Positions 3 through 64,000 of a stretch of DNA of 64,000 nt are shown in pieces. Numbering within the stretch: position 1 is the stretch's first letter; each line of letters begins with the position of its first letter. The position numbers and the translations under genes were made by a program. Source of the DNA: Spirochaetia bacterium (GTDB lineage Bacteria; Spirochaetota; Spirochaetia; CADAEX01); contig OY759746.1 in assembly GCA_963662795.1 (NCBI GenBank), positions 3,648,001 through 3,712,000 of the forward strand, read 5' to 3'. The notes under the pieces were generated by a model. It did not search any database and was not told the origin of the DNA. It saw only the letters and a program-made list of their open reading frames with translations.

Positions 3-863
3 AATCAGTCCGATTTTACAGAACTCAGTGTTGTAATCCCCTCTTTTAACGGCGGTTCTGTAATTGAAAAAACATGTATAGAAACCATTGCGGTTCTTGA
101 TGGATTAACTGATAAATGGGAAATTCTCATAACAGACGACGGCAGTACAGACAACACCTGGGAAAAGATTAAATTACTTAACAATATGGATAAAAGGATA
201 AAGGGCATACACCTTTCCAAAAACAGCGGCCAGCAGGAAGCAACCTATTACGGGCTGTTATATTCAGCAGGCGGAAAAGTAATTACAATGGATGATGATT
301 TGCAGCATGATCCCAAATATATACCTCAAATGCTTGACTTTGGGGACGGAGGATATAGCTCAGACAGCAAAATCCTGAGGAACGGAGGATTTTTTATAGT
401 ATTTGCCTCATCCCGCAATATATATTCCATAACAAGATCATTGGGATCATTGGCACACGATCTTTTTTTCTTTCTTTTTTTCAACAAACCATTCGGCGTT
501 AAAATAACCGGCTTCAGGCTTCTATCCTGTGACCTTGTACAGAAAATAATCACATCAAAAAGAGATTTTATCTATATATCAGCAATAGCGTTAAGATTGA
601 AACCCCGTATTTACACATTGGAAACTGACGCTGCCATAATTACCAACAGCAGATACAGTCTTTTTAAGCTTATACGACTTTTTTTTCTTCTTGTTGTGCA
701 TTACACCCTCCCGGATTCACTTTATTTCAGCATAATGAAAACAATCAGGAATTTCCCAATAACAGATAAGAAGAGAAGCCCTGGATTTGTATCCCATAAA
801 ACAGATAAATCATCAGTATCAGAGACAATTCCTGGAAATTTATCAACTAGAGTAAAGGACTGA
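3..863 (+). CDS. Glycosyltransferase family 2 (DPM/ArnC-like), 5'-truncated by the window edge
   Basis: The frame is open from position 3: SVVIPSFN, ITDDGSTDNTW, NSGQQEA, TMDDDLQHDP are GT2 polyprenol-phosphate transferase motifs. The ORF-track start at 186 is internal. Confidence 0.85.
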   Translation, partial: NQSDFTELSVVIPSFNGGSVIEKTCIETIAVLDGLTDKWEILITDDGSTDNTWEKIKLLNNMDKRIKGIHLSKNSGQQEATYYGLLYSAGGKVITMDDDLQHDPKYIPQMLDFGDGGYSSDSKILRNGGFFIVFASSRNIYSITRSLGSLAHDLFFFLFFNKPFGVKITGFRLLSCDLVQKIITSKRDFIYISAIALRLKPRIYTLETDAAIITNSRYSLFKLIRLFFLLVVHYTLPDSLYFSIMKTIRNFPITDKKRSPGFVSHKTDKSSVSETIPGNLSTRVKD

Positions 864-4658: not shown

Positions 4659-6317
4659 TTAATCTGGTTGAACTTTATAGATTTTTACCAGGTATTCTTT
4701 TTTTTTCATATAATCAACAATTCTGACCGGATATATTTTTTTTCTTAAAGTTTTGACAAGAGTACATTTATTATTAAGAAAAGAGAGGGCTTCATCATAA
4801 TAACTGTAAACATTCCCATAAAGATCATTCCAGACAGGCCTTTCCTGCGCTATAATATCCAGTTCCTCTGTCCAGATGATATATTCAATTTTATTTAGTT
4901 CAATGTAATCGCTGAATTTTATTTTTTTTTCTATTACCTGATCAAGATCGTTATATGAACAAAGTCTACCGTAATCAAGGTTAAAAGCCAGATTTGTATT
5001 TGCAAGAATTTTTCCGCTATCACCTGTTAACTCCGTTATTTCCCTGGAATACTCATTATAGCTGATATCTTTCCAGCTATTTACCTCTGAGTAAGCCTTT
5101 GCAATCTGGTATAACAATAATACGGAAAAAGATATAAACAGAATAAATGCAGCAAAAACATTATTATTTATTCTTTTTCTTGATTTTTTACTTCTTAAAA
5201 CCACATCCATTCCTGTTTGCATATCAACATAATCTTCCTCCGTCCCTGTTTTCATATTATAAAGAATGTCTGCCTCCGTCCCCAATAAAATCCATAATAC
5301 AGGAAAGAGAAAAAAGATTGATGGAGGACTGTATTTACCTATAACAACTATTCCTGCAGCAATGCCGGCAGAAAACAATACTAAAGGGAAAATACGTTTT
5401 CTTGATTTTTCAACTAAAAAGACCAGCAATAAAGCAATTATAAGAGCTGCTGCAAATATATAAAATTGTCCTCTGATATCAGGGAGATAATAAGTTCCCT
5501 GAATCTGATAATATATCTTGTATAAAAATCTGGGAAAGGCAAGCAATTTAATAAACAAAGAATCCCCTACACCGTGTCTTGAACCAAAATTATAATAGTG
5601 ATTTAAAAAATCTCCATCCATAATTAAGCTTGCAAAAAGGGCAATTACCCCGAAGATTATTGTGATAAAAACATATAATCCAAGAATTTTGATTACAATG
5701 GAGATTTTATTTTTTTTATATAAAACTGTAGCGGCAAGAAAAGGGATTATTCCTGTAAAAATAATAAAACTGTTAGGGTGTATAAAAATCGAAAAACCGG
5801 ATAAAAACGATGCCATTAAAATCAGTCTTCTGAAATTATCCTTATCAATACCTGCAATAATAACAAGCTGTATAACTGCAAACAGATAAATAATTATTTC
5901 CTGTCTGGCAAAACGGGATATGTAAATATACTGGATATCAGTAATTATCAGCAGTAAAGTAAATATTCTGATAAAATTGGAACTGATATATTTTTTTATT
6001 AATAAATTTAGAAAATACAGCACAAAGACTGATGCAATAATTGAAATCAATCTTGCTGAATTAATAGAAAAATCCATCATTAGAAAAGGTAGCTGAATAA
6101 TATGAAATAGCAGTTTTACAGCATGCGGGAATCTTTCTGTTATTCTGAAAAACTCTTCAGTGGCAGCAGGATTTTTTTCAGTTATAATAGACCGCGTAAG
6201 GGAAGCCAGCCAGGCTTCATCTGAATGTACAAAAGGATATGAATCGAGATAAAAGAGATTAAGTAAAAAATAAAGTGCCAGTAAAAAAAATATCAGTTTA
6301 CTTTTTGCCACATTCAT
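4659..6317 (-). CDS. GT-C fold membrane glycosyltransferase (ArnT/PMT-like)
   Basis: N-terminal TM followed by PFVHSDEAW (DE motif), ARLIS, SRFARQE, many TM segments and a soluble C-terminal domain. Confidence 0.7.
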   Translation of the reverse strand: MNVAKSKLIFFLLALYFLLNLFYLDSYPFVHSDEAWLASLTRSIITEKNPAATEEFFRITERFPHAVKLLFHIIQLPFLMMDFSINSARLISIIASVFVLYFLNLLIKKYISSNFIRIFTLLLIITDIQYIYISRFARQEIIIYLFAVIQLVIIAGIDKDNFRRLILMASFLSGFSIFIHPNSFIIFTGIIPFLAATVLYKKNKISIVIKILGLYVFITIIFGVIALFASLIMDGDFLNHYYNFGSRHGVGDSLFIKLLAFPRFLYKIYYQIQGTYYLPDIRGQFYIFAAALIIALLLVFLVEKSRKRIFPLVLFSAGIAAGIVVIGKYSPPSIFFLFPVLWILLGTEADILYNMKTGTEEDYVDMQTGMDVVLRSKKSRKRINNNVFAAFILFISFSVLLLYQIAKAYSEVNSWKDISYNEYSREITELTGDSGKILANTNLAFNLDYGRLCSYNDLDQVIEKKIKFSDYIELNKIEYIIWTEELDIIAQERPVWNDLYGNVYSYYDEALSFLNNKCTLVKTLRKKIYPVRIVDYMKKKEYLVKIYKVQPD

Positions 6318-6434: not shown

Positions 6435-7382
6435 TTACTGGGCAACGACAGGATATCCCTGGTTTGTCCATCCCATCGGAGCATTCTTGGGAACACCCAT
6501 TCCGCCTTTCAGCGAAACTGCGTCATAACCGAGGAGCCTTAAAGCTGCTACAGTCTGTCCCGCAGTCTGACCTGAATAACAGTAGATAATAATTTTTTTA
6601 TCTGAAGGCAGGGACTGAAAAGAAGAATCCATACCAGATGCAAACGGGATATTAATCGCACCGTCTATGTGCCCTTTCGCATAATCTTCAGCTCTTCTGA
6701 TTGAAACAAAAACAGCAGATTTATCTTTTGCATCAAAAATGGCTTTAGCATTGGCTTCGCTGATAATATTGCTGGCAAATGGGGTGTCCTTGATCGATGC
6801 GAATCTCTCAAAATATTCAGTAACTTTTTTTGCTATAACAGGATTTACATCATATTTTTTTGTCATATTAAGCTCAGCTGTCTCAGTTGTTGTAATTGCC
6901 TCATAGCCGGGAACTTTTGAAATTCCGAAATTCCAGCCGAAAGCCACAGATTTAACAGGAATACCAGCTGCATTCATCAGCATACCTGCCTGTGCAGCTG
7001 TCTGACCTGAATAGCAGTAGATGTATACATTCCCTTCATGAGGAAGATAGGCAAGTTTTTCAGCAACAGGCATACCCCAGGGAACACTAACTGCACCTTT
7101 TACATGGCCTTTCGCGTAATCTGCCGCTGATCTTGCGTCTATTACAAACATCTGTTCGCCAGCTTTTACTTTTTCAACAAAGTCAGCTTCCTTGATCTGA
7201 TAGTTTGTATGTGCAGCCAGATCTGCATAATAATTTTTTACCGCTTCTGCCGCATAATTTACTTTCATTTCTGCAGCAGGGGATGCGGCAGGTGCTTCTT
7301 TAGCGCCTGTAGCCCAAACAGTAGATGCTGTAGTACTTAGCAGCATTATAAGCGCGATCTTTAAAAATAAAAATTTTTTCAT
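6435..7382 (-). CDS. Exported tandem rhodanese-domain protein
   Basis: Signal peptide ending VWA followed by TGAKE; two domains, each with DYAKGH(V/I)xGA and an active-site loop YCYSGQTA. Confidence 0.85.
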   Translation of the reverse strand: MKKFLFLKIALIMLLSTTASTVWATGAKEAPAASPAAEMKVNYAAEAVKNYYADLAAHTNYQIKEADFVEKVKAGEQMFVIDARSAADYAKGHVKGAVSVPWGMPVAEKLAYLPHEGNVYIYCYSGQTAAQAGMLMNAAGIPVKSVAFGWNFGISKVPGYEAITTTETAELNMTKKYDVNPVIAKKVTEYFERFASIKDTPFASNIISEANAKAIFDAKDKSAVFVSIRRAEDYAKGHIDGAINIPFASGMDSSFQSLPSDKKIIIYCYSGQTAGQTVAALRLLGYDAVSLKGGMGVPKNAPMGWTNQGYPVVAQ

Positions 7383-7411
7383 TTAAATACCTCTTTGTTA
7401 TTTTTCTTTAT

Positions 7412-8323
7412 TTATGAATTATCTGATGAATTAATCATATAAACCGGTTTTTCCGGTTTAAACACAGGATTCATGGGATTGGCAATCCACTCAACCCATG
7501 CTCCGTCATATAATTTCAGGTTTCTATAACCAGCATTATAAAGAGCAAGATATGTCTGAGCACCTCTTATAGAAGTTTTACAGTACATATAAATCTCCTT
7601 ATCATAATCAATCTTCTCCTGAAGATATCTTATCCTTATCTGCTGCACCGGTTTATAAGTACCGTCACTGAAATTATTATCCTTATAGTTTAAAAGAACT
7701 GAACCAGGTATAGTGCCTTCCTCTTCATATTCTTTCTGTGACCTTGTATCAATAATTACTGCATCTGAGCGTGGATTATCAACGAGCTCCCTTAAATCGT
7801 CACGTACTGCTATCATATTCTTTCTTTCTTCTGAAATACTGTATGTCTTAGTTTCTCTTGAGACAGCCTGATCTGATACTTTTGCACCTTCAGACAGCAG
7901 GGCGTTAAGACCGCCGCTGACAACCTTTACAGTATCATTTCCATAATACTTTAATGTCCACCATAATCTGGCAGAATCCATATTGTCGTTATTATCATAG
8001 ACAACAATCAGCATGGAATTATCAATGCCCTTCCTGCCCATCAGTTCTTCGATCTGAACGGCAGGAGCCAGCATATTAATATATGGTGTATTAACTACGA
8101 TGTCTGCTCTTGAGATGTTTACCGCACCCTCAATATGTCCATTACTGTAGTCAGGGAAATTCCTGGCATCAATAAGAACTGTTTTACCATCGCTTATCAG
8201 ACTAATAGCTTCTTTAGCAGTGATTATTTCTGTATTTATTTCACCAGGTGCTTTCTGTCCGCAGGAGAATAGCAGCACAGTGAACAGTAAAACTGAAAAA
8301 AATATTCCGTATTTTAGTTTCAC
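7412..8323 (-). CDS. Sulfurtransferase (TST/SseA-like tandem rhodanese) lipoprotein
   Basis: Lipobox LLFSC, GHIEGAV, SARLWWTL, active site YCKTSIRG, C-terminal LYDGAWVEW. Confidence 0.88.
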   Translation of the reverse strand: MKLKYGIFFSVLLFTVLLFSCGQKAPGEINTEIITAKEAISLISDGKTVLIDARNFPDYSNGHIEGAVNISRADIVVNTPYINMLAPAVQIEELMGRKGIDNSMLIVVYDNNDNMDSARLWWTLKYYGNDTVKVVSGGLNALLSEGAKVSDQAVSRETKTYSISEERKNMIAVRDDLRELVDNPRSDAVIIDTRSQKEYEEEGTIPGSVLLNYKDNNFSDGTYKPVQQIRIRYLQEKIDYDKEIYMYCKTSIRGAQTYLALYNAGYRNLKLYDGAWVEWIANPMNPVFKPEKPVYMINSSDNS

Positions 8324-8332
8324 AATACCTCC

Positions 8333-9568
8333 TTATATCAGACTCTTGAGTTTTTCAATAATCGCCGGTTTTGAGCAATCCATGGATCCGTCAATAACTA
8401 CACCATCTTTGGTATAAAAAATGGTCATTGGCGATGCTGTACAGTCAAGTCTGTCGCAAAGTGATCTGCCTTTATAAATATCTATAAAATTGAGTTTAAC
8501 CTTATCTTCGAATTCCTTTTCAATTTCCTGAAGCATTGGCATAAGTTCCCTGCTGGGAGCATCAATAGCTGAATAAATATAAATCATGCCGATTTTTTCT
8601 TTCTGCATAATCTGATTTCTGAACATTTCGGATTCCGCTATATATTTTTCAGCACCAACGCCGGCAATTGAACCGTCACCAACAGCAGTAGCGACCTGTT
8701 TAAGTTCTTTTTCCCTGATATCACCGCAGGCTAATACACCGGGAATATCAGTACGCATTTTTTCATCAGTTGTTACATAGCCCTGTTTGGTTAGTTTTAA
8801 CTGATCCTTGAATATCTCCGAATTAGGCAGATAACCAATAAATTCAAAACATGTATCAGCAATTACAGTATCAAGATCACCAGTCTTAAGATTTTTTAGT
8901 ATTACTTTTTCAAGTCTCTCTTCTCCCTCAAAAGAATTGACAACTGTATTCCATTTGAATTCCATTTTCGGGTTAGCAAGAGCCTGTGCTTTTGCAATCT
9001 CATTACAGTCCATTTTGCCTGTATCATGAATTACTGAAACAATTACTTTTTTTGCGAATTTCGTAAGAAACATCCCTTCTTCGATGGCAGCATCACCGCT
9101 TCCGATAACCATTACAGTTTTATCTGTATTAGCCGCAGCATCACATGTAGCGCAAAAGGAAATACCTTTATCAAAAAGGAATTTCTCTTCGTTTACAGCC
9201 CCTGTTGTTCTTGGCCTTCCGCCGGATGCTATTATAACAACTTTACATTCAAAAATATTTCTGAATGTTTCAACTTCCTTGATTTCATTTTCCATTCTGA
9301 CGGTTTTTACATCTGTCAGCTTGAAATTAACGCCGAAGTTCTTAGCCTGCTGATGGAACTTGTTCATCAGTTCAAGCCCGGTTAATGAATCCGGAAAGCC
9401 GGGGAAATTCCCGATTTCGTTTGTATAAGTCGCAAGCCCACCGATGAGGGCTTTTTCTATTACAAGTGTATTAAGTCTTGCTCTGCCGCAGTATATTGCG
9501 GCAGTTAATCCGGAAGCTCCGCCACCAATTATGACGACATCGTATCGTTCTCTTGTTTTTTCTCTCAT
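8333..9568 (-). CDS. trxB: Thioredoxin reductase-like flavoprotein with a C-terminal thioredoxin-fold extension
   Basis: GGGASG FAD motif, CATCD redox motif, GSGDAAIEE, TDIPGVLACGD, QVATAVGDG, plus ~95 extra C-terminal residues. Confidence 0.85.
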   Translation of the reverse strand: MREKTRERYDVVIIGGGASGLTAAIYCGRARLNTLVIEKALIGGLATYTNEIGNFPGFPDSLTGLELMNKFHQQAKNFGVNFKLTDVKTVRMENEIKEVETFRNIFECKVVIIASGGRPRTTGAVNEEKFLFDKGISFCATCDAAANTDKTVMVIGSGDAAIEEGMFLTKFAKKVIVSVIHDTGKMDCNEIAKAQALANPKMEFKWNTVVNSFEGEERLEKVILKNLKTGDLDTVIADTCFEFIGYLPNSEIFKDQLKLTKQGYVTTDEKMRTDIPGVLACGDIREKELKQVATAVGDGSIAGVGAEKYIAESEMFRNQIMQKEKIGMIYIYSAIDAPSRELMPMLQEIEKEFEDKVKLNFIDIYKGRSLCDRLDCTASPMTIFYTKDGVVIDGSMDCSKPAIIEKLKSLI

Positions 9569-9589
9569 TACTTTTCCTTGAGTTTTTAA

Positions 9590-10135
9590 TTACATAAAAT
9601 ATTTAACAAGCAATTTGCTGCCGATCATGGCTCCTATAAAAAGGAAAAATCCAAATACCCAGCCGGAAAGAGACAAAGATGATATACCACTGTAAAACGC
9701 TCCAATATTGCATCCCTGTGCAATTCTTGCCCCGTAACCCATAAATAAACCACCAAGTATGGCAGCAAGAACCTGCCTTGAGGATTTTAATTTTTTAAAT
9801 TTGAAACCGGAGGCTATCAGTGTCGCGAAAAGAGCCCCGGTAATAATGCCTACATTTCTCATTGACGCAAAATCATTGAGAAAACCCCGTTCCAAAGTAT
9901 TTCTAGCACCTTCACTGGCAAAATAATACCATTTATCTACCGAACCGCCTGCAAATTCATATATCCAGGCTCCCCAGTTGGCAAATGCAGCAGATACACC
10001 CCAAGGGTTACCTGTTACAGCAAAAGTCACAATCTGGAAAACTGACAGTAATATGGCTCCGGTTAGATACGGCCATGCATCTTTTAACCACAGTATGTAG
10101 TAATCATTGGTTTTAATTTTATCAGTCAGCTTCAT
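9590..10135 (-). CDS. YeeE/YedE (TsuA) sulfur transporter, C-terminal half
   Basis: PWGVS, GGLFMGYGARIAQGCNIGA, SLSGW. Confidence 0.88.
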   Translation of the reverse strand: MKLTDKIKTNDYYILWLKDAWPYLTGAILLSVFQIVTFAVTGNPWGVSAAFANWGAWIYEFAGGSVDKWYYFASEGARNTLERGFLNDFASMRNVGIITGALFATLIASGFKFKKLKSSRQVLAAILGGLFMGYGARIAQGCNIGAFYSGISSLSLSGWVFGFFLFIGAMIGSKLLVKYFM

Positions 10136-10150
10136 TGATCCCTCCAGGGG

Positions 10151-10378
10151 TTATTTTACTTTTTCGATTATAACGTCCCATTCGCCGTCACCAACTTCTT
10201 CAACTTCAACATTGTGGCCATCAGTTCTTGCCCATTCAGGGAGATTTTTCATTGCACAGCTGTGATCTATTTGAACTATCAGGATATCCCCGATTTCAAG
10301 TTCTGCCAATTTTTTCTGTGCTTTTACGAGAGGTACCGGACAAGCTTCTCCCAGACAATCAAGTTCTACTTCTTTCAT
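10151..10378 (-). CDS. TusA/YeeD-family sulfur carrier
   Basis: LDCLGEACPVP (CPxP). Start moved to MKEVELD, which has an AAGGAG RBS. Confidence 0.9.
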   Translation of the reverse strand: MKEVELDCLGEACPVPLVKAQKKLAELEIGDILIVQIDHSCAMKNLPEWARTDGHNVEVEEVGDGEWDVIIEKVK

Positions 10379-10395
10379 TTTAATACTCCTTAATT

Positions 10396-11130
10396 TCAAT
10401 GACTTTGTTCCGCTTTTCTTTTGCCCCATTTATCAGCAGCAATCCATAAAAAAGCGATAATTAATAACTGTATTGTTACAGCCCCAAACCAACCGAATAC
10501 ATCGGGAAGGAAAACGGCTTTCCCTTTCATAATTACATTAAGCTGCCACCATCCGAAATCATGAGCAGCCCAAAGTGACCCTGCAACAAAAAACACTAGG
10601 GAGAGTATCTGCATTGCAAAGCCTTCGCCAACTCTCATCAGAGTACCTGATGCACACCCGCCGGCTATAACCATTCCTATTCCGAAAATTAAACCGCCGA
10701 GCACCGTTGCAAGACTTACAGGAACAACAAAACCCTGTCCCGGGATCGGCATACCATTAATAAATGCACCGTACTTTATCGCAGTAAATCCCAAGGTAGT
10801 AATTGCAAGTGCTGCAAGAACTGATTTTGTCAGATTTGTCCCTCCGGTTAAGTATGGATCCCTCATTGAGGCAGTAAAACAGAATCTTGTTTTCTGAAGG
10901 ACAAAACCGAAAAGATTACCTGTGATCCAGAAAAATGCCAGTGTTTTTGAGATAAAACTTAATGCAAAACCCGATATTACAATAAGCACAAGAATTCCAA
11001 GACCAGGCAATATTTGATCTTTTTTAGGTTTTCTCGAAGCAGTCCTGCTGCTTCTTCTTATACCTGATATACCGCCAGAAGCTGAAGCATCAGGCACAGA
11101 AGTTTTAGTGATGTTTTTTTCATCTCCCAC
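10396..11130 (-). CDS. YeeE/YedE (TsuA) sulfur transporter, N-terminal half
   Basis: GFVLQKTRFCF, GGLIFGIGMVIAGGCASGTLMRVGEG. Confidence 0.88.
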   Translation of the reverse strand: MGDEKNITKTSVPDASASGGISGIRRSSRTASRKPKKDQILPGLGILVLIVISGFALSFISKTLAFFWITGNLFGFVLQKTRFCFTASMRDPYLTGGTNLTKSVLAALAITTLGFTAIKYGAFINGMPIPGQGFVVPVSLATVLGGLIFGIGMVIAGGCASGTLMRVGEGFAMQILSLVFFVAGSLWAAHDFGWWQLNVIMKGKAVFLPDVFGWFGAVTIQLLIIAFLWIAADKWGKRKAEQSH

Positions 11131-11329: not shown

Positions 11330-12574
11330 ATGGAATTATTATCCCCTGCAGGCAGTATAGAGAAACTATTTTATGCATATGAATATGGAGCTGATGCAGC
11401 TTATATAGGACTTAAAAACTTTTCACTCAGAGCAAAAGCTGATAATTTCAGAAAAGACGAATACCTTGAAATTAAGAATATAAAAAAGAATAAAAAACTA
11501 TACGCGGCACTTAATATCTATTTTCATGATAACGACATAAAACACCTTGAAAGTGAAATTGAATATATATCAAATTATCCTATAGATGCCTTTATAATTA
11601 GTGATATTGGTCTTCTTCCTGTTATGAAAAAATATTTTCCCAATACTGAACTACATTTAAGCACACAAGCAAATTGTGTTAACACAAATTCAGCAAAACT
11701 TTACAGGGATATGGGATTTTCAAGGATAATTCCCGGGCGAGAATTATCTCTGAGGGAAATTGAAGCCATAAAAAGAGATGTTGATAATCTTGAAATTGAA
11801 GTTTTCGTTCACGGGGCGATGTGTCTGGCCTATTCCGGCAGATGCTTTTTAAGCAAATATCTTGCCGCCCGCTCTGCAAATAAAGGCGATTGCGCCCATT
11901 CCTGCCGATGGAAATACAGGGTTCTTGAAGAATCCGAACGGCAAGGAGAATATTTCCCATTGATTGAAGGTGAAAATTTCACATCTATCCTCTCTTCTAA
12001 AGACATTTGTATGATAGATCATATAAAAGATCTTCAAAATGCAGGTATTGATTCCCTAAAAATTGAGGGAAGGATGAAATCTATCTATTATACAGCAGTA
12101 GTTACCCGGGCCTACAGAAAAATGATTGATTATATATCAGCTGGCAATAATGATTTTGAGGGACGGAGGAATAATTTTATCGATAAAAATATAGATCAAT
12201 ATGTCAATGAAATTTATAAAGTCAGCCACAGAGAATTTTCAACAGGTTTTTACTATACAAAAGAAGATATTGAAGAATCTACTTATAAATCTTATATGAA
12301 AAAGTATAATTTTCTTGGTAGTATTATTGAATTAGTAAATAACACATCTTCCCCCAATAAATATTGTTATCTGCTTGATGTAAAAAACCAAATTTCTGTA
12401 AATAAAGAAATAGAATATATAGGACCAGATCTTCTTTATAAGATTGACACTAATTACAGTCTTTACGATGAAAATTTCAACAAAGTCGAAAAAACAGATC
12501 ATGGGAAAATTTCATATCTCGTAACTGATGAAAAATTAGAAACAGGATTTATAATTCGCGAAAAATATCATTGA
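11330..12574 (+). CDS. Peptidase U32 family protein (TrhP/YegQ-like RNA hydroxylase)
   Basis: ELLSPAG, HLSTQAN, HGAMCLAYSGRC, GDCAHSCR Fe-S cysteines, SLKIEGRMKS. Confidence 0.9.
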   Translation: MELLSPAGSIEKLFYAYEYGADAAYIGLKNFSLRAKADNFRKDEYLEIKNIKKNKKLYAALNIYFHDNDIKHLESEIEYISNYPIDAFIISDIGLLPVMKKYFPNTELHLSTQANCVNTNSAKLYRDMGFSRIIPGRELSLREIEAIKRDVDNLEIEVFVHGAMCLAYSGRCFLSKYLAARSANKGDCAHSCRWKYRVLEESERQGEYFPLIEGENFTSILSSKDICMIDHIKDLQNAGIDSLKIEGRMKSIYYTAVVTRAYRKMIDYISAGNNDFEGRRNNFIDKNIDQYVNEIYKVSHREFSTGFYYTKEDIEESTYKSYMKKYNFLGSIIELVNNTSSPNKYCYLLDVKNQISVNKEIEYIGPDLLYKIDTNYSLYDENFNKVEKTDHGKISYLVTDEKLETGFIIREKYH

Positions 12575-13064
12575 AAAAATATTTTAATAGCTTCTTTTCT
12601 AAATTATTAGGTGGATCAATAAATCTATATTTTTTATAGTTTATTCCACAGTATAAATAATTACGGACGTTTTTAACAATTTTTGCAGCAACAGGGTTAT
12701 TAGCAATATATTTATATGCGTAAATGAACTCTTTTAAGTTTTCAATAATAGTACTTTTAAATCTATCATACCAAACATGTCCAATATATCCATATTTTTT
12801 ATTATATCTAATTGCAAAAACACTCAATATCCACTGCATAATTTTTGACAAATTTACATTTTCTCCAGGTTTGATCAATAAATGGATATGATTATCCATA
12901 ATACAAAAGTTTTTTATTTGGAATGAATACTTTTTTTTAGCTTTTTTCAGTACTATAATAAACATCTCTTTTATTTCCGTGGTATTAAAAATAAATTCTT
13001 TCCTGTTAGCTCTCGCAACTACATGATAAAAAACATCTTCCTTTATTTTTCTTGGGATTCTCAT
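12549..13064 (-). mobile_element. REP-associated tyrosine transposase-like protein (Y1 HUH, IS200/RAYT family)
   Basis: YHVVARANRKEFIF, HUH motif MDNHIHLL, GHVWYDRFKS, catalytic Tyr in YIANNPV. Very AT-rich; no tnpB partner. Confidence 0.85.
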
Positions 13065-13099
13065 ACATTAATTAACATATGCAATTACTTTGCTGCTTC

Positions 13100-13138
13100 A
13101 AAACATGGATTAAAAGTTATACTATTAATCCATGTTTT
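13100..13138. repeat. Perfect 14-bp inverted repeat (hairpin) upstream of the RAYT gene
   Basis: AAAACATGGATTAA (13100-13113) and TTAATCCATGTTTT (13125-13138), with three more inner pairs AGT/ACT. Confidence 0.9.
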
Positions 13139-13219
13139 TGGCACAGGGAGCATGTAGATCTGATTATTTGAAACCTCCGTCCCTTTACTCAACTCAGCTA
13201 GGTAATAAAATATTTAAAT

Positions 13220-15088
13220 CTATTCCGGTTTATAAAGACTTTCCGGAACTACTCTAACCGCTCCTTTATCAGCAGATGTTACAAAGTATGAGTAGGCTTT
13301 AAGAGAATCAGAAATAATTCTATCACGGACAGGTGTATATGCATCTTTTCCTCTATTTTTTTCATCTTTTTTTCTTTTTTCTAACTCACTAACGTTGATA
13401 TCAAGATTTATTGACCTTGCAGGTATATCAATTTCTATAATGTCGTTATCTTTTATGAGAGCAATTGTCCCTCCCGATGCTGCTTCAGGAGAAATATGGC
13501 CAATCGAAAGGCCTGAAGTACCTCCAGAGAATCTTCCGTCAGTAATTAAAGCACATTCCTTGCCAAGATGTATGGATTTTATGTAAGAAGTTGGATATAG
13601 CATTTCCTGCATTCCTGGTCCACCCTTTGGGCCTTCATAAATAATTACAACAATATCACCTGCTGTTATTTTCCCACCCAGGATCGCATCACAAGCAAGC
13701 TCTTGTGAATGAAACACTCTAGCTTTACCTCTGAATTTAAAAAGAGAACTGTCTACACCTGCTGTTTTTATTATTGATCCCTTCTCGGCAATATTGCCAT
13801 AAAGGACAGCAAGTCCTCCGTCCCTATAATAACAGTTCTCAACACCTCTAATACACCCATTTTTATTATCAGTATCAAGCTCTTTAAATGTTGAGTCCTG
13901 TGAACCTAAAATAAGATTAAATACACCTCCAGGTGCCGACTTGGCATTTTCAAATGCTTCAGGCATAGCCTTAACACCTGATATATCATAAGCATCAAGT
14001 GTTTCGCCTAGGCTAGATGAATCAACTCTTTTTACAGTTTTATCAATGAGACCAGCTCGTGCAAGTTCAGAAAGTATCCTTATAATACCTCCTGCCCTGT
14101 TTACATCTTCAACATGATAGCTTGAACTTGGAGCTACTTTGCATATACACGGGACCTTTCTGGATAATTCATCAATGTCCTTCATAGTAAAATCAGCTTT
14201 TGCTTCCTGCGCTATTGCAAGAAGGTGAAGTACTGTATTTGTTGAACCTCCCATGGCAATATCAAGAGTCATGGAGTTCAGGAATGCATTTCGTGTTCCG
14301 ATTGAGCGGGGGAGAACAGAATCATCCCCAAGTCTGTAATAGCGGTCAGCATTTTTAACAATCTGCAGGGCAGCCTTTCTGAATAGCTCTTTTCTCCTTT
14401 TATGTGTAGCAACAATAGTACCGTTACCGGGAAGCGCAAGACCAAGCGCTTCATTAAGGCAATTCATTGAATTAGCAGTAAACATACCGGAACAGCTTCC
14501 GCATGTTGGGCAGGCGTTCCTCTCAAGTTCATCAACATCGCCGTCAGAAATATTTTTATCAGCACTCTGTACCATTGCATCGATAAGATCTATTTTTTTA
14601 CCTTTATAATTTCCTGCCTCCATCGGTCCCCCTGATACAAAAATCGCAGGGATATTAAGTCTCATAGCAGCCATGAGCATTCCGGGAGTTATTTTATCGC
14701 AATTACTAATACAGACAAGAGCGTCAACTCTATGCGCATTGCACATATATTCAACACTATCTGCAATTAAATCCCTTGATGGCAAGGAATAAAGCATCCC
14801 GTCATGTCCCATTGCTATACCGTCATCAATTGCAATTGTGTTAAATTCTGCTGCAAAACAACCCTGTTCTTCGATAATTGATTTTACATATTGTCCAATT
14901 TCATGTAGATGAACATGTCCCGGAACCATCTGAGTAAAAGAGTTGGCTATCCCAATAATAGGTTTACCCATCTGATTTTTTTTCATTCCATTTGCAATCC
15001 AGAGACTTCTCGCCCCTGCCATCTTCCTATCTTCCATAGTCAGACTGCTTCTCAATTTATTTTTCATTTGAACTATTTTTTCCATCAC
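13220..15088 (-). CDS. ilvD: Dihydroxy-acid dehydratase
   Basis: [57 protein letters not shown]. Confidence 0.97.
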
Positions 15089-15110: not shown

Positions 15111-16394
15111 TCATATTTCTTTTACTGCTTTAAAAATTAGTTTCAAAAGTTCAGGAATTTTTTCAATATCTACAGACGAAAATGCAATTCGCAGATATTT
15201 TCCCGAAATTGAAATTGTACCTGTGGAATATTCTTCAAGAAGATGTTTTCGAAGCTTCTCAGCGTCTTTTCCAAGCAATTCGAATGTCATGAAATATCCT
15301 GAATTAAAAGGAAGAATCTTAAGAGGTACATCTGCAGGTATATTTTGAACAATTTCTTTTACTTTTAAATATCGTTCTTTCATCCGTGCTCCGGCAAATT
15401 CCTTTTCCTGATGATAAGTACCGCTTGAAAGTCCTTTTAATAAAAGGTTTTGCGTGATATTACAACAGCTTGAAACAGATGATCTTATAGCACCCATTGT
15501 TTTTTGCTGAAGGGCTTCATACTGCTCTTTGGTTATCCCCTTTCCTCCGTAGGTTATAAAACCTGTTCTGAATCCCCAGACTAGTTCTTCCTTTGTAGCA
15601 CCGTCTATTTTTACTGCCAGTATATTTTTATGAAGATTACAAAGTTTTCCGAAAAGAGATTCTGTAGATGTGTTTTCTTCAAAAAAAAGTCCAAAATACG
15701 CATCATCGCAAATCACAAGTATTTTGTGCCCATTTTCTGCAAGTCTGTTAAACATTGATATAATTTCATCAGACTCTTCTACAGAAGGTGAATAACCTGT
15801 AGGATTATTTGGAAAATTAAGAATAACGGCTGTTTTTTTATTTCCAGTTGATTTAATAGTATTTTCAAGGCCTTTTATATTTATTTTATCATCATCAAAA
15901 AACGGATAGTTGACAACGTTTCCCTGCCTCCGTCCCTCTATAATAAGCTTATAATTACCCCAATACATATCAGGCACTACTACACTGTCGTCTTTTTCTA
16001 CAAAAAGATCGGCGGCTATAGAGATTCCATGGGTAAGACCTGACGTTACAATTGGCAGAGAAATAAGAGAATCTCCGATTGAAGGATTTTTTTTAAGCAT
16101 CTCATCTTTCCAGATTTCCCTGAGTTTCAATATTCCTGCTGTAGGTGCATAGCTGAATATCTCAGAGGGTTCAAGCCCGCTGATATGTTTCATTATCGAT
16201 GGTAGAAACATAGGTTTATTATCGCTTGTCGCCATACCTACTGTTGCATTATATTTTTTAGCCTTGGCACCGGCCTCTGCAGCCTGTGAAACAATTCCTT
16301 TGGGAAAAAACATTCTTTTTCCAAGGTCCGAAAGAAGTGTATAAATAGTTGAATTATCAAGTACTGCATTAAGTTCTTTAACGATTGGTTCCAT
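15111..16394 (-). CDS. PLP-dependent class I/II aminotransferase
   Basis: [19 protein letters not shown]-lysine motif [16 protein letters not shown]. Start at MEPIVK, which has an AAGGAG RBS. Confidence 0.9.
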
Positions 16395-21715: not shown

Positions 21716-23884
21716 ATGACTGCATTTAAAATTAAAACAGAATTTCAGTTTTTTAATAATATTTTTTCTTTCTTTTTTATTTTTCTCACTTTTATAACTG
21801 GATGTGAAGCTGTAGAAGTAATTAAAAAAGATAATCCTGCAGAGAGAAGTATTGATTTGATGACTGCGGTTTCAGCATATTATGACGGCAATTTTAATGA
21901 ATCTATCTCTTTGTTTGAAAGAATAATTCTGGAAAATCCGGCAAATCCCGATGCTGTGCTGAGTCTGGCAAGGCTTTATGAGGAGTCCGGCCGCCATTTA
22001 GAGACAGCAGAATTATTAAAATCAGAAAGCTTCTTGACTGAAACAAACAAAAAAAAAGAATCTTATTCAAAAAACAATAGCAGGACATTTTCAATGTGGG
22101 AAGACAGCGCCCTGCCGTTCTTTTTATCAGGAAATAATGAAGAGTATGTTCGGAAGACTGAATCTTTAATTCAGAATATGACTTTAAAATCCAATGATGA
22201 TATACAGCAAAAACAATCACAGATGGATGAATTATCAGAAATGTTTTTTTTTACCGGATGGGCATATGAAAATACCGGCGCAAAAGATAAAGCAATAGAT
22301 TCATTTGAATCTTCCATCAGGATAAGGGAATACTTTCCTTTAGCGCATCTTGCCCTTGGATTACTGTATTTTAAAAATAATGATTTTGAATTGTCTGAAA
22401 AACATCTTCGTACAGCTCTCAAACAGGATTCCAATATCACGCAGGCACGGCCATATCTTGCAAAAACTTTTCTTGCTCAAAACAGATTGAATGAAGGATA
22501 TGCAGAACTTCAAAAATCAATGGCAATCAGACCGTGGGACAGGGAAACAAAAGAGATACTTACAGTTTTTGAAAAAAATAATCCTGCAATTATTAAAGAG
22601 AAAGAAGAATTTACTGCTAAAAAAAGAATTTCATCCTCCGTCCCCAAAGCAATTTCCATTACAGACGATAGAGACACGATGCCTCAGATAAGAGTGGGAC
22701 TTGCAGAAAATTCAAGTGAATTATTTATCAAAACAGGAGGGGATTTCATTATAACTTCCCAGTCTGGGGAACATCTTCTTAAGGGTAATAATAATCAGAT
22801 TTACAGAATTGTATTTGATCATAATAATATTGTAATATCCTCAACAAATGATGAAACGGTTCTATCTATTTCAAAGCCGATCTCGCTTGTTTATGATAGT
22901 CCATTCTCAACAACTCTGATCTTTGATATTTTACACAGCAGCGGATATCAGTCGGCAGGACAGGAAGACAGAGACTATAGAGGAAAAATATCCTTTATCC
23001 CTTTTCAGAATAATGGAATTACAATAGTTAACACGCTGCCTCTTGAGGAATACCTTTATTCTGTCGTTCCATCAGAAATGCCATCTTCCTGGCCTGAAGA
23101 GGCGCTTGCCGCTCAGGCTGTCGCTGCCCGCTCTTATACGCTTGCAAATATGGGAAAATATGAAAAACGGGGATTTGACCTTTCCGGTTCCATTCATTCC
23201 GCATTCTACCGCGGGCTGTCCGGTGAAAACACTAAAACTACTGCTGCTGTAGAAAAAACCCGCGGACTTTTTCTAAAATATGAAAACAGTTATCTTAATG
23301 CATTCTATTCCGCCAATTCTGCAGGAAGAACAGAATCTGCAGAAAGTGTCTGGAAGATGAATGCTCCGATAATTGGAGTAACCGATCCTCAGCTTGTATT
23401 TAAAACCAATCCTCCGTCCCCATGTGAGCTTACCAGGTGGATATTATCAGAACCTCCGTCATACAGCTCTGTTCCACCTTTTTACTACAAATCTTCATAC
23501 CGATGGAGAATTATTGTTCCCAGAGAGGAAATAGAAGCAAGAATAGGAAATGATATCGGTACTGTATTAAGAATTACAACCCGTGGACGGGGAATGAGCG
23601 GAAGGGTAAATGAGGTTCTTGTTGAAGGAAGTAAGGGGAATGAAATAATCCGCAATGATTCGATAAGAAACCGTCTCGGCGGATTACGCAGCAACCTTTT
23701 TATTGTCATGCCTAAAATGGGAGAAGACATGATTCCGCAATTCTTTATTTTTGCAGGAGCCGGATGGGGTCACGGAGTTGGCATGTGCCAGACTGGTGCG
23801 GCAGGAATGGCATCTGAAGGATTTTCAGCAGAAGAGATTCTTAAACATTATTATCCGCTTGCTGATTTAATAAAAGAATATTGA
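21716..23884 (+). CDS. TPR plus SpoIID/LytB lytic transglycosylase lipoprotein
   Basis: Lipobox FITGC, TPR-like helices, LEEYLYSVVPSEM, ALAAQAVAARSY, GWGHGVGMCQTGA. Confidence 0.88.
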   Translation: MTAFKIKTEFQFFNNIFSFFFIFLTFITGCEAVEVIKKDNPAERSIDLMTAVSAYYDGNFNESISLFERIILENPANPDAVLSLARLYEESGRHLETAELLKSESFLTETNKKKESYSKNNSRTFSMWEDSALPFFLSGNNEEYVRKTESLIQNMTLKSNDDIQQKQSQMDELSEMFFFTGWAYENTGAKDKAIDSFESSIRIREYFPLAHLALGLLYFKNNDFELSEKHLRTALKQDSNITQARPYLAKTFLAQNRLNEGYAELQKSMAIRPWDRETKEILTVFEKNNPAIIKEKEEFTAKKRISSSVPKAISITDDRDTMPQIRVGLAENSSELFIKTGGDFIITSQSGEHLLKGNNNQIYRIVFDHNNIVISSTNDETVLSISKPISLVYDSPFSTTLIFDILHSSGYQSAGQEDRDYRGKISFIPFQNNGITIVNTLPLEEYLYSVVPSEMPSSWPEEALAAQAVAARSYTLANMGKYEKRGFDLSGSIHSAFYRGLSGENTKTTAAVEKTRGLFLKYENSYLNAFYSANSAGRTESAESVWKMNAPIIGVTDPQLVFKTNPPSPCELTRWILSEPPSYSSVPPFYYKSSYRWRIIVPREEIEARIGNDIGTVLRITTRGRGMSGRVNEVLVEGSKGNEIIRNDSIRNRLGGLRSNLFIVMPKMGEDMIPQFFIFAGAGWGHGVGMCQTGAAGMASEGFSAEEILKHYYPLADLIKEY

Positions 23885-23926: not shown

Positions 23927-24361
23927 TCAGGCGGATAATACCTCTTTAAGTGTTAAAACATAATCTCTGATTTCATCTCTTACCCGTCTGTAAATTCCAA
24001 GAACATCTTCTTCAGTTGCAGCATTTTTTGCAAGACGGGGCGGATCATCAAAACTGTGATGTATTATTTTTGTTTTTGCGGGAAAAAAAGGACAGTTTTC
24101 ACTTGCATGATCACAGACTGTAATAACATAGTCAAAATTCTGGTACGGCAGTTCTGACGTAATTTTACTTTTATGAGACGATATATCCACTCCGGCTTCT
24201 TTCATAACTTTTACAGCATTTATATTTAATCCATGTTTTTCAATGCCTGCAGACCAGGTTTCCGCGATATCTGAGATAAGATGCCTGGCCCATCCTTCTG
24301 CCATCTGGCTTCTGCAGGAATTGCCTGTGCACAGGAACAGTAGTTTTGGTTTACTTTTCAA
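23927..24361 (-). CDS. arsC: Arsenate reductase, thioredoxin-coupled LMW-PTP type
   Basis: CTGNSCRSQMAEG, VCDHASENCP, FDDP, RRVRDEI. Confidence 0.92.
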   Translation of the reverse strand: MKSKPKLLFLCTGNSCRSQMAEGWARHLISDIAETWSAGIEKHGLNINAVKVMKEAGVDISSHKSKITSELPYQNFDYVITVCDHASENCPFFPAKTKIIHHSFDDPPRLAKNAATEEDVLGIYRRVRDEIRDYVLTLKEVLSA

Positions 24362-57708: not shown

Positions 57709-58794
57709 TCAACTTTCTCCGCCGGTATTAATCATTTCAAGATTATCGATAAATCTTTTTATCCCATTATAAATACCTTCGGTTATTTTCTTCAAGTAAT
57801 TTTTATCCGAAAGATTTACAGATTCTTCTTTATTTGATACAAATCCCACTTCAATCAGAACAGAAGGCATTTTGGCATTTTTTACAACAAACCAGGTTTC
57901 TTCCTTTAAGCCTCGGTTTAAATCCTTACTGCCAATTGATTTATCAAGACCATCGAGGATATTTTGCGCCAATAAAATACTCTCTATTGTAAATTCTTCT
58001 TCAAGCATTGTATTCAGGATGGGAAGGATATCTTTTGTTTTTTTGTCAGCTTTGTTCTCATCAATCAAATCCCGCCTGTAATCAGGCGGCAGATACCAAA
58101 CCTCAAACCCTTTTGCGTTTTTATTGAAAGAAGCATTTGCATGTATTGAAACAAATACAATTGCCTCGTTTTTTCCAAGTTTGACATTATTTGCTTTTTC
58201 TACCCTGTCATCAAGTGAGGGATATGAATCGTTGTTTCTCGTCAGAATTATTTTTTTATCCCTGTAGGCAGAGGTTAGCCTCCTGTTTAGTTCAAGTGCA
58301 ATATCAAGTACGACATCTTTTTCATAAACAGTATAATTATTTCCATCAATATCATGTCTGCCTATTGCTCCGGAATCCCTTCCCCCATGCCCGGGATCAA
58401 TAATTATTGCAGCAATCCTGTGCCCCGAAGGTTTAACATCAGTCGGTTCCTTCTCAGCTGGTCTTGAGAAAGCAGTAAAACCGCTCTTTGAGAGTATTGC
58501 TTCAGCGGTTTTACCATCAATTATGATAATTCCTCCGTCCCTGTTTATCCTTGAGCCTGTTATTTTTTCCTTATAGTTATATACAACAAAATCTTCTCCC
58601 GGTTTGAAACTGAAAATATCTTCCCCGTACTTAAGTTCTCCGGTATCAAGTATTGGGGACCATCTGAATGAAAAATTATTTTGTTTAATAAAATCCGTCA
58701 GAGAAATATCATCAGATGCTGCATTGGCATTAAAACAGAGGATAAACAGAAGAATAACAATTAAAACTGCTGATTTCCGCCCTGTTATTACCAT
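57709..58794 (-). CDS. N-acetylmuramoyl-L-alanine amidase (Amidase_3)
   Basis: IIDPGHGGRD, EKDVVL, FVSIHANAS, PSVLIEVGFVSN. Confidence 0.93.
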   Translation of the reverse strand: MVITGRKSAVLIVILLFILCFNANAASDDISLTDFIKQNNFSFRWSPILDTGELKYGEDIFSFKPGEDFVVYNYKEKITGSRINRDGGIIIIDGKTAEAILSKSGFTAFSRPAEKEPTDVKPSGHRIAAIIIDPGHGGRDSGAIGRHDIDGNNYTVYEKDVVLDIALELNRRLTSAYRDKKIILTRNNDSYPSLDDRVEKANNVKLGKNEAIVFVSIHANASFNKNAKGFEVWYLPPDYRRDLIDENKADKKTKDILPILNTMLEEEFTIESILLAQNILDGLDKSIGSKDLNRGLKEETWFVVKNAKMPSVLIEVGFVSNKEESVNLSDKNYLKKITEGIYNGIKRFIDNLEMINTGGES

Positions 58795-62229: not shown

Positions 62230-62945
62230 GATTTTCTATTACTGTCGGGATGGGGATTCTTTTTAAGCCAGTCAATAAGCCGTTCAGTACTTTCTGTCAA
62301 ACAATCAGTTCCGGTTATATTATCAATTTCAAAGATTCTCTTTATATAAAGATAATCATTCATGGTATCCATGGTTATCCTGCCGTCCGGATATATTGAT
62401 CTGATATCAGCTTCAGGATGATTCAGCTTATACAATGACGGTCTGCGGTAAAGATAAGGAGTAACATGCTCCCTTTCGTACGGATCAGTGGCATTTTTTT
62501 CCGCCTCCAGCAATTTTTCTGATTTTACTATCTCAACCCCGGCGCCCAGAGGCATTCCTGTGAACCAGCTGTGATCCGCATTTTTTTCAATATGCTCTGA
62601 AAGAATAAACTGCGCCTGGCGGTAAAACACCAGTGGATTATCTCCTGTAGCCCTTACAAAGTTAAGAGGAGAGTATTTTTCAACCGCAAGGGCAAATCTT
62701 TTTAAAACATCATCAGCAGGACCCTCCATAATCTCAAATCCGTACTTCTGTGTTTCCTTTTCAAGTATAGCAAAACTGTCGCGGTCGGTGAGAACAACAT
62801 AATTATCTGCCTTTATTCTTTTCAGCCTGATCATGGCCCTGCCGAGCGCCGTTATTCCATTAAGATCAAAAAGAGCTTTGGAAGGGAGCCGCGTTGAACC
62901 GATACGGGCCTGCAGAAAAACAGCTACATTTCCGGATCTGACCAT
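62226..62945 (-). CDS. SpsF/NeuA-like acylneuraminate cytidylyltransferase
   Basis: QARIGSTRLPSK, DDVLKRF, RATGDNP, REHVTPY. Confidence 0.88.
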   Translation of the reverse strand: MVRSGNVAVFLQARIGSTRLPSKALFDLNGITALGRAMIRLKRIKADNYVVLTDRDSFAILEKETQKYGFEIMEGPADDVLKRFALAVEKYSPLNFVRATGDNPLVFYRQAQFILSEHIEKNADHSWFTGMPLGAGVEIVKSEKLLEAEKNATDPYEREHVTPYLYRRPSLYKLNHPEADIRSIYPDGRITMDTMNDYLYIKRIFEIDNITGTDCLTESTERLIDWLKKNPHPDSNRKS

Positions 62946-63889
62946 AGTTCTGTTAACCCTCTGCAGTCAAAATTAAAACGGTATTTATTAAGTTCAACCC
63001 ATTTTTTTGCTTCATTAAAATTATTTTTTGCCGTAAAAAAACTTTCACCCGACCTTAACAGATACTGTATAAATTTTGATCCGGGCAGATAACCTGAATC
63101 ACCGTTAAACCTTACTGCAAGATTTTTCAGGTAAAACATCCTGTAATATCTGTCAACAGAGGAATCATCTGTAATAAAATCTGAAGTATAGGCCGACTGA
63201 AGGCTTGTATTGCAGACAATTCTTCCGCCCCACATGTTTACCCTGAACCCGAAATCCATCTTCTGCCAGTACTGGTTCAGGATTGAGTAATCATACCCGC
63301 CGCTGTAAAGAAATTTCTCCCTGTTGTAAATACCGCAATAATCAAACGGGAACAGGGTGATTGCACCGTTTTTTTTGGGAACAGTATAAATAATCTTGAG
63401 ATTCCGTTTTTTAAATGCCGGTATCACTATTGAAGGGACTATTTCGTTTCCTGAAGTTCTCAACACCGGGACAGTACAGATAGATTCTTCATGCTGCAGG
63501 TTTTCAACTAGCCTTACAGATACTGATGATGGAGAAAGTTTCATATTATTCCATACTGTATATACATATTCGCTTTTTGCCTCTTCAAGCCCGAGATTTA
63601 TCTGCTCTCCGGGGCTGCAGCTTTCCTGAAGCAGGAGGAATTTAACAAAAGGGAATTTTCTTGAAATGCTTTCAACATCATAGTTTACACCGGGATTTTC
63701 TATGGATATTACCTCAGCAAAACCAAGGCTTTCAATTTCCTTTAAAAAATCAGTTTTAAATATGGATTTTCCCCTGTTAAGGACAAGAAGAGAAAGGCGT
63801 TCAAAATGTCTTTTCCCTCCGCTTCCTCCGTCCCCGAGGACTGTATAGGGAATCCGCGCCCTTTTAGAAGTTGTAGGTATAGTATTCAT
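62924..63889 (-). CDS. Conserved hypothetical protein, GT2-like fold
   Basis: GEQINLG, GGYDYSILNQYWQKMDFGFR. Start placed at MNTIPTT, overlapping the end of the upstream gene. Confidence 0.65.
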   Translation of the reverse strand: MNTIPTTSKRARIPYTVLGDGGSGGKRHFERLSLLVLNRGKSIFKTDFLKEIESLGFAEVISIENPGVNYDVESISRKFPFVKFLLLQESCSPGEQINLGLEEAKSEYVYTVWNNMKLSPSSVSVRLVENLQHEESICTVPVLRTSGNEIVPSIVIPAFKKRNLKIIYTVPKKNGAITLFPFDYCGIYNREKFLYSGGYDYSILNQYWQKMDFGFRVNMWGGRIVCNTSLQSAYTSDFITDDSSVDRYYRMFYLKNLAVRFNGDSGYLPGSKFIQYLLRSGESFFTAKNNFNEAKKWVELNKYRFNFDCRGLTELWSDPEM

Positions 63890-64000
63890 CACACTTCCCG
63901 CATATTCCTGAATAATTGGATTCCAGTTGTTCAAGATAGTATTTTTCCCCTTCTCTCCATATTTCTTCCATATCGTCTGTAAAGATATTGCCGAGTACTC
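63864..64000 (-). CDS. C-terminus of a SPASM-domain protein (spiro-SPASM-like), partial
   Basis: Frame from 63998: VLGNIFTDDMEEIW...ICGKCDEYYTYNF*, containing the SPASM GN..IW..CxxC signature. Not in the ORF track. Confidence 0.8.
   Translation of the reverse strand, partial: VLGNIFTDDMEEIWREGEKYYLEQLESNYSGICGKCDEYYTYNF

Follow-up and report, generated by a model that had tools for sequence, protein, structure and literature searches.

The 64,000-nucleotide stretch analysed here (the window; contig OY759746.1, positions 3,648,001 to 3,712,000) comes from the 3.93 Mb genome of a Spirochaetia bacterium (G000), in which a gene for a Y1 HUH transposase-like protein of RAYT/TIRYT type is present once. 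The gene lies between a U32 (TrhP-like) gene and ilvD and is surrounded by copies of an 11-nucleotide motif, RGGGACGGAGG. The strongest feature of this system is that the copies make up a distance-dependent halo formed in register in the neighbouring genes, which an earlier reading of the DNA without database searches (the sequence-only reading) had missed. From the sequence comparisons set out below we lean slightly towards the explanation that a TIRYT-like Y1 enzyme, inserted between U32 and ilvD, recognises this motif and writes and refreshes copies of it in nearby DNA.

The Y1 gene and its insertion

The gene had been described as RAYT-like, and this was confirmed by its open reading frame (ORF), by a match of the 171-residue protein to PF01797 (E 1e-17) and by a score of 76.4 bits against the RAYT model NF047646, slightly short of the cut-off of 80. 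The catalytic motifs H59-x-H61 (NHIH) and Y119-x-x-x-N-P (YIANNP), the latter in the Y---NP form of class 2, are intact, and the HUH and catalytic tyrosine residues are invariant in all 39 clade proteins. The predicted structure has a pLDDT of 88, and its nearest solved fold is that of E. coli TnpA-REP (4ER8; TM 0.71), which is also the only solved structure matched by sequence. PF01797 is the only domain common to the 39 proteins, none of which has a C-terminal helix-turn-helix (HTH); the SS tail motif is absent, YCG standing where 4ER8 has FS. A weak search for longer or fused forms, covering proteins of at least 441 amino acids, returned one 447-aa match of unrelated length.

Judging by the titles of the relatives' records, the clade is found almost wholly in the Spirochaetia. 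One member, L091, is titled Lachnospiraceae bacterium and has the same motif on both sides of the gene, and another, P0029, is titled as a Lokiarchaeota protein; these records reflect either horizontal transfer or mis-binning. No viral relative was confirmed among 10 candidate stretches. Two identical Y1 proteins in G009 (loci L013 and L022) occupy different sites, which suggests a recent duplication, and both of these genes have a motif copy within the Y1 coding sequence itself.

U32 and ilvD adjoin one another without the Y1 gene in G005 and G011, while the congener G001 carries it where G000 does; by this comparison the gene is an insertion between U32 and ilvD that is now inherited. The ratio of nonsynonymous to synonymous substitution rates (dN/dS) between G000 and G001 is 0.12 for the Y1 gene, 0.12 for U32 and 0.09 for ilvD, and is 0.09 for the Y1 gene at a site common to G005 and G008. 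Judged by these ratios the gene is under purifying selection, in agreement with the earlier suggestion of a domesticated gene. G005 has five Y1 copies at different sites, all of them bracketed by an inverted motif pair. Measured against empty sites, three of these units and one in G008 span approximately 840–950 bp, and the ends of the three G005 units lie approximately 10–25 nt outside the motifs, among the alignment rows listed. No target duplication is resolvable at 75–85% identity. The U32 and ilvD orthologues in G008 (C29:43744–46919) are frameshifted in several places, probably through assembly errors.

A halo of motif copies around the gene

The exact 11-mer picked out by the sequence-only reading occurs six times in the window, where 0.01 would be expected, and 10 times in the genome. 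That motif stands, but the degenerate form RGGGACGGAGG is more accurate, with 11 copies in the window and 26 in the genome (control pattern 7). As had been stated, the copy upstream of the gene is the only intergenic one among the six exact window copies by the ORF list, and an oppositely oriented copy is present in U32; these two have just 11 nt in common.

Copy density in G000 falls with distance from the gene, from 6.0 per 10 kb (<2.5 kb) through 2.7, 0.67, 0.40, 0.13 and 0.13 to 0.02 (>300 kb). A distance of at most 25 kb separates the gene from nine of the 26 copies in G000 (binomial p 2e-11), from 15 of 22 in G028 (p 1e-24) and from 20 of 34 in G003 (p 3e-21), and in G005 eight of the 14 non-bracketing copies lie within 30 kb (p 3e-6). 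Up to five Y1-centred halos are found per genome. For a wider comparison we took the best 80 of 565 confirmed stretches, and the 76 with an upstream copy were used for pooled counts. In this pool the cognate variant declines from 43.8 per 10 kb at 0–300 nt upstream to 2.4 at 5–10 kb, whereas a control variant with base 7 swapped stays at 0.04–0.06 throughout and a single occurrence of the reversed pattern is found in 1.1 Mb.

By simple ORF calls, 230 of the 344 copies more than 600 nt from the gene lie in predicted ORFs and 114 between them, and the intragenic copies occupy every one of the six frames, with 158 sense and 72 antisense. The copies in G000 are strongly biased to one strand (22/26). 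In G000, G003 and G028 the copies of the halo as a whole point toward the gene; over the 76 loci this bias is strong in the first 300 nt upstream only (94 versus 4) and is absent downstream, so we do not claim it.

Motif abundance follows the gene across genomes, which bears out the proposals of a link between the Y1 protein and a non-palindromic 11-mer found largely within genes, and of an abundance that co-varies with the RAYT clade. With 61 genomes scored for the G- or A-type motif (G or A at base 7), 14 of the 15 with the clade are motif-rich versus 2 of the 46 without; the threshold for motif-rich was chosen after viewing the data, and related genomes are not independent. The exceptions are G055, G002 and G038, the first of which has the clade together with sites ending in GAGC or GGC, outside the counted variants. 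Within genus g2, A-type copies number 34, 46 and 16 in three genomes with the gene and 2–4 in six without. A single family contains G-type (G000, G005, G008) and A-type (G003, G009, G019) genomes, and G059 has both protein types together with both motifs.

Origin and conservation of the copies

Perfect copies are absent from the orthologous stretches of relatives without the gene there (0 in 8/8), and these stretches, of 12–19 kb per region, hold 0–1 one-mismatch sites each. Four of the five window copies compared show no indel, the U32 copy being the exception. For G003 and genus g4, 12 of 16 sites can be aligned in register with one or more outgroups, and these 12 differ from the nearest outgroup at 1–8 nt (median 4). 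Several gains alter residues common to all four outgroups. Perfect copies number 382, against 0–6 per one-mismatch variant (at least 60-fold), counts close to those of the control, with the exception of the GAGC variant (37). In G002 the motif anchors tandem units, three of 18 nt and two of 36 nt, and there is also a small in-frame insertion; the 18-nt unit stands in three tandem copies at the site matching the glycosyltransferase-2 copy of the window.

Orthologous copies keep their exact sequence beside flanks that have diverged, and are perfect in 11 of 12 pairs between G000 and G001 (3.9 expected), and in gap-free pairs between G000 and G002 (4/4; 0.5 expected) and between G003 and G019 (4/6; 0.3 expected). 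The copies have 11–13 nt in common, with no flank consensus over 380 copies. Similarity to the flanks of the master copy shows a weak excess at positions 0, +11 and +13 (p 0.005–0.02) that genome composition could explain, and copying of these flanks was not used in the argument. Among the rows listed for contigs of four sequencing runs there were no joints at motif sites, a result that is uninformative. No RNA data set was among the listed sequencing runs that hold this DNA.

Upstream copy, promoter and hairpin

The expectation that homologues carry their own flanking motif is borne out on the upstream side, where one of six 11-mer variants lies on the sense strand within 300 nt in 76 of 80 loci. 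A looser 8-mer finds the upstream copy in 78 of the 80, and one locus has just 36 nt of upstream sequence. The nearest copy starts at favoured distances of 52, 63, 73, 85 and 95 nt before the ATG. Tested on copies 45–130 nt from the ATG, with other distances excluded, this helical phasing has a Rayleigh p of 2e-7 (n=103) and a best period of 11.2, and it is retained in less similar subsets (p 2e-6, n=82, <80% identity; p 1e-3, n=44, <65%). The copy in G000 itself begins 120 nt before the ATG. At loci L104 and L113 the motif upstream of the gene is built into an 11–13-bp palindrome, a self-complementary form like that of repetitive extragenic palindromic (REP) sequences. Promoter-like elements adjoin the ATG in many loci (column consensus, 79 loci), and the sequence suggests a leaderless transcript of the Y1 gene; a consensus promoter scan did not flag the predicted promoter segment of G000.

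The perfect hairpin between the upstream motif and the gene is present as described (folding z -3.1), and the part in the system proposed for it fell away. A stem of at least 13 bp between motif and ATG is found at one of 76 loci, that of the congener, and a role as the recognition end of the Y1 protein was ruled out since the hairpin is not conserved across loci. The hairpin alone is ordinary because the G000 genome has 52 perfect stems of at least 14 bp; compared with the genome, its sole other match is a single 15-nt arm at window positions ~24225–24240. It is likely a locus-specific terminator for ilvD and/or U32. A terminator scan did not pick it up, and an Rfam search returned chance microRNA matches only, far under cut-off.

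An inverted bracket had also been proposed. Within 600 nt downstream, 68 loci could be counted, eight of the 76 being too short and left out: 22 have an inverted copy only, 18 a direct copy only, five both and 23 none, so that an inverted copy is found in 27 and a direct one in 23. The downstream inverted copy is not a conserved feature, and in G000 and G003 the downstream copy lies within a host gene, outside the inserted unit, and is not an element end. Two absences reported earlier hold: tnpB is missing from the locus, where the flanking ORFs are U32 and IlvD, and there is no classical REP palindrome, in that no GTAG- or GTGG-footed hairpin lies within 1 kb of the Y1 gene.

Residue 99 and the specificity of the motif

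A single residue of the protein predicts motif base 7 at 115 of 115 loci without exception: Y or H at position 99 goes with G (77/77), and G, A, I, C or Q with A (38/38). In six further loci, with I, E, M, N, A and F at position 99, base 7 of the nearest upstream copy is A, and one further locus with H99 has both motif types. Y99 aligns to Q95 of 4ER8, and K103, the second-best column, to W99; these two TnpA-REP residues hold the GTAG guide (PMC3479197; PMC6006769). The residue pattern and the alignment point to direct readout by the HTH-less Y1 core, and Y99 is a candidate base-reading residue. The protein would read the motif via the strand W98-Y99-D-R-F-K103, which is aligned to the guide-binding strand of TnpA-REP.

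Features of the window

The features described above and the individual copies are collected in Table 1. Run X4 comes from a near-identical strain that differs at 117 positions over 20 kb. Among the differences listed, a dense cluster runs from 4782–4926 onward and falls in the membrane-protein gene shortly before the motif pair at 5237 and 5273.

Table 1. Positions of the Y1 gene, its flanks and the motif copies in the window
Feature	Position	Strand	Remarks
Y1 HUH transposase-like gene, RAYT/TIRYT type	12549..13064	-	ORF, 171 aa
Upstream (5') motif copy	13174..13184	-	Conserved cognate site; CCTCCGTCCCT on + strand, AGGGACGGAGG on sense strand of gene; 109 nt from ATG
Predicted promoter of leaderless transcript	13071..13101	-	TTGAAG-like -35; TGTTAAT-like -10 directly before ATG
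AT-rich perfect hairpin	13100..13138		14-bp stem; arms 13100-13113 and 13125-13138; 35 nt from ATG
Host U32 (TrhP-like) gene, left flank of insertion	11330..12574	+	Adjoins ilvD where Y1 gene is absent
Host ilvD, right flank of insertion	13220..15088	-	Adjoins U32 where Y1 gene is absent
Halo copy in U32, AGGGACGGAGG	12159..12169	+	379 nt past Y1 stop; within 11-codon (33-nt) in-frame extra segment missing in G005 and G011
Halo copy in ilvD	13815..13825	-	No indel; Pro in three relatives, Arg here
Halo copy in class I/II aminotransferase gene	15927..15937	-	No indel; EGRC in genus g4, EGRR here (Cys to Arg)
Halo copy GGGGACGGAGG in TPR/SpoIID-domain gene	22635..22645	-	Antisense; no indel
Second halo copy in TPR/SpoIID-domain gene	23411..23421	-	Antisense; no indel
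Halo copy in membrane-protein gene 4659-6317	5237..5247	-	Absent at this position in G001, where a copy lies 33 nt further along
Second halo copy in membrane-protein gene	5273..5283	-	36 nt from 5237 copy; perfect in G001
Halo copy in glycosyltransferase-2 gene	342..352	+	One-mismatch copy next to it at 378-388
Distal halo copy in amidase_3 gene	58532..58542	-	Perfect in G001
Distal halo copy in ORF 62924-63934	63825..63835	-	Perfect in G001

Explanations for the halo

If the Y1 enzyme does write its own motif, the upstream copy would be both the left end of the element and a control site, phased by approximately one helical turn with respect to the leaderless promoter. The protein would act mainly in cis, nicking and strand transfer pasting motif-bearing single strands into nearby DNA; the HUH chemistry is established for TnpA-REP, where a 5'-phosphotyrosine link is resolved by an incoming 3'-OH (PMC3479197). 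Within genes, only replacements of equal length and insertions or duplications that keep the frame would survive, decayed copies would be rewritten by the enzyme, and the whole unit would move only rarely. Writing in cis, selection for frame and rewriting would together explain why the copies thin out with distance from the gene, are gained in register and duplicated, have few near-matches and are conserved. A more ambitious form of this reading, in which a minimal HUH enzyme is a natural cis-acting, template-free writer that overwrites nearby DNA in register with its own 11-mer, keeps the sites perfect, controls its own promoter by helical phase, switches specificity via one residue and edits host proteins, is tentative, and we stop somewhat short of believing it.

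Several observations weigh against enzymatic writing. The 80-locus set was partly seeded by a pattern that includes Y99. On quick trees with the residue-99 strand masked, the residue and the base each change only three times, and the two independent pairs that lie on supported branches agree but are too few for significance (sign test p 0.5). The in-register mismatch averages 4.4, a small excess over the 3.5 expected from the flanks, and single-step overwriting is not directly visible because the outgroups are just 70–85% identical. The Y1 enzymes characterised to date act on single strands, but the helical phasing points to binding of duplex DNA. A related multi-copy Y1 clade (L202–L243; ~40% identity, many similar copies at different sites) is without the catalytic tyrosine and has 2–4 tandem AGGGACAGAC motifs upstream in opposite orientation, its units ending ~35 nt past the stop with no downstream motif; binding can therefore persist without cutting. 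No cognate gene was found in two motif-rich genomes, G002 (20 copies) and G038 (26); the G002 assembly is also without the U32, ilvD, aminotransferase and SpoIID-domain genes, and G038, in 440 contigs, holds a longer motif-less Y1 plus a fragment. G034 has 52 G-type copies, and its sole Y1 protein has N99 with an A-type nearest site.

The copies could instead be duplex binding sites that arose by point mutation and are held by selection for autoregulation, looping or local chromosome organisation, with no enzymatic writing. This would account for orthologous copies that are perfect at synonymous positions too and for the ~11-bp phasing of the upstream copy, and it sits well with the lack of indels at most intragenic copies, with the tandem motifs retained by the tyrosine-less relative and with target sites that were partly motif-like beforehand. 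The outgroups, however, offer 0–1 one-mismatch sites per 12–19 kb, yet G003 has 12 perfect copies in 20 kb, and one- and two-mismatch intermediates are not enriched. Because these intermediates are lacking, selection covers conservation and phasing but not the copy numbers. The gains that change residues shared by all four outgroups also tell against it, and halos wherever the gene lands are a poor fit to a host chromosomal role; we regard selection as an unlikely explanation, though one to be taken seriously. We find it less likely still that the copies are frame-trimmed footprints, that is, eroded ends left by local hops or by abortive insertions and excisions of an element bounded by terminal inverted repeats (TIRs) or of its miniatures. 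Such an element is recognisable in G005 and G008, where the gene travels as a unit ending just outside the inverted pair; the U32 copy lies in an in-frame extra segment, the intergenic copies are over-represented (114/344 against 18% non-coding DNA), and moderately abundant TIR families have been reported (Di Nocera 2013, PMC3733652). Footprints would be expected to decay, yet the copies stay perfect; they have only 11–13 nt in common with no flanking element sequence, most intragenic ones are without an indel, and the downstream copy in G000 and G003 is host DNA outside the inserted unit.

A signal for a host factor, similar to KOPS, matS, parS or an uptake sequence, or chance, with the transposase merely having landed in a motif-rich region, would fit the one-strand bias in G000 and the two motif-rich genomes in which no cognate gene was seen. 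That reading is largely refuted and we give it very little credence, as the empty-site relatives have no copies, six gene-less congeners of A-type genomes hold 2–4, the variant tracks the Y1 subclade and not the host within one family, and G059 pairs both protein types with both motifs. The cluster is distant from the origin, and ~220 kb separate it from the skew terminus; a KOPS, matS or replichore signal was rejected.

Relation to known systems

The nearest known kind is the TIRYT/TIRtron, probably corresponding to TnpA-Y1 subclass 2.1 and RAYT group 1. TIRtrons or TIRYTs are RAYT-like genes flanked by inverted GGGGWSAS motifs, with moderately abundant TIR families (Di Nocera 2013, PMC3733652), and most TIRYTs are equated with subclass 2.1, whose 20 members all have an HTH (Quentin 2018, PMC6006769). 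RAYT group 1 has low-abundance flanking 16-mers (Bertels 2017, PMC5581495), and for picocyanobacteria the available part of a bioRxiv note reports that no inverted repeats were found. The Spirochaetia clade shares with TIRYTs a RAYT-like Y1 gene without GTAG REPs, a G-rich non-hairpin flanking motif at a similar distance, a low copy number and dispersed copies of the end sequence, and some of its copies are true inverted-pair units with empty sites (G005, G008). The sister A-type variants GGGGACAG match GGGGWSAS exactly, whereas the window copy AGGGACGG differs at two of eight positions. G000 has an inverted pair, but its downstream member lies in the host U32 gene.

The differences from TIRYTs as described are a motif of 11 nt in place of long TIRs, G at base 7, no C-terminal HTH or SS tail (which also sets the clade apart from subclass 2.1) and a downstream inverted copy that is optional. 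Also different from the available descriptions are the local halo, whose copies are intragenic in two thirds of cases, for the most part free of indels and conserved perfectly, the helically phased upstream copy and the candidate specificity residue. The clade works like a TIRYT but misses two described features, the HTH and the long TIRs. The sequence-only reading had taken the system to be undescribed, which fails for RAYT-like genes with inverted motifs, known as TIRYTs (PMC3733652), and stands for the rest: in a literature search that covered subscription journals thinly, we found no account of a local halo, of copies gained in register, of phasing or of a residue that sets specificity, and no biochemistry on TIRYT-type proteins.

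With E. coli TnpA-REP (4ER8) the protein shares its HUH/tyrosine core, a single gene copy under purifying selection, and co-varying residues that align to the guide-contacting Q95 and W99. Unlike the REPtron (PMC3479197; PMC8266576) it has no GTAG foot, hairpin repeats or BIME/REPIN arrays, and its motif occurs in tens of copies near the gene, mostly in coding DNA, in place of hundreds genome-wide; the abundant GTAG-footed REP hairpins that define RAYT/REPtron groups 2 and 3 are missing from the G000 locus. The Y1 HUH fold and occasional moves to new intergenic sites recall IS200/IS605 TnpA, from which the clade differs in having Y---NP and not Y---Q, no tnpB, no conserved subterminal hairpins and within-genome copies that are divergent and not near-identical, with one copy in G000. 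DNA uptake sequences are short motifs over-represented in coding DNA with few near-matches, for which enzymatic creation and upkeep have been proposed. Cyanobacterial HIP1 is likewise a short coding-DNA motif with few near-matches and proposed enzymatic creation and upkeep (Elhai 2015, PMC4390886). Both are genome-wide and tied to methyltransferases or uptake, whereas the Y1 motif is non-palindromic, local to one gene and follows an HUH protein.

Other features of the genome

Outside the window, positions ~1,846,800–2,180,100 of G000:C1 hold a chromosomal integron-like array of ~154 attC-like repeats, all on one strand and spaced by 1–6 kb over 330 kb; a tyrosine-recombinase-like ORF (~1,846,800–1,847,800) comes before the array. 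Within the window, split YeeE/YedE (PF04143) sulphur-transport genes lie at 6435–11130, and their neighbours are what we take to be rhodanese-like, thioredoxin-reductase-like and TusA-like genes.

Implications

The origin and upkeep of the repeats of RAYT-family enzymes, and the reason that hosts retain the genes, are described as an open question (PMC5581495), and writing of the motif by the enzyme itself would differ from the accepted view of how repeats spread. The clade is a compact test case, with a 171-aa protein, an 11-nt hairpin-free site and natural G- and A-type variants that go with a single residue; its empty-site relatives date the copies. If in-register writing is true, the enzyme would act as a mutational force by recoding host genes in its vicinity, and it may offer a lead for the writing of short sequences. 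If selection explains the halo, then a transposase-derived protein would have an unknown local DNA-binding role.

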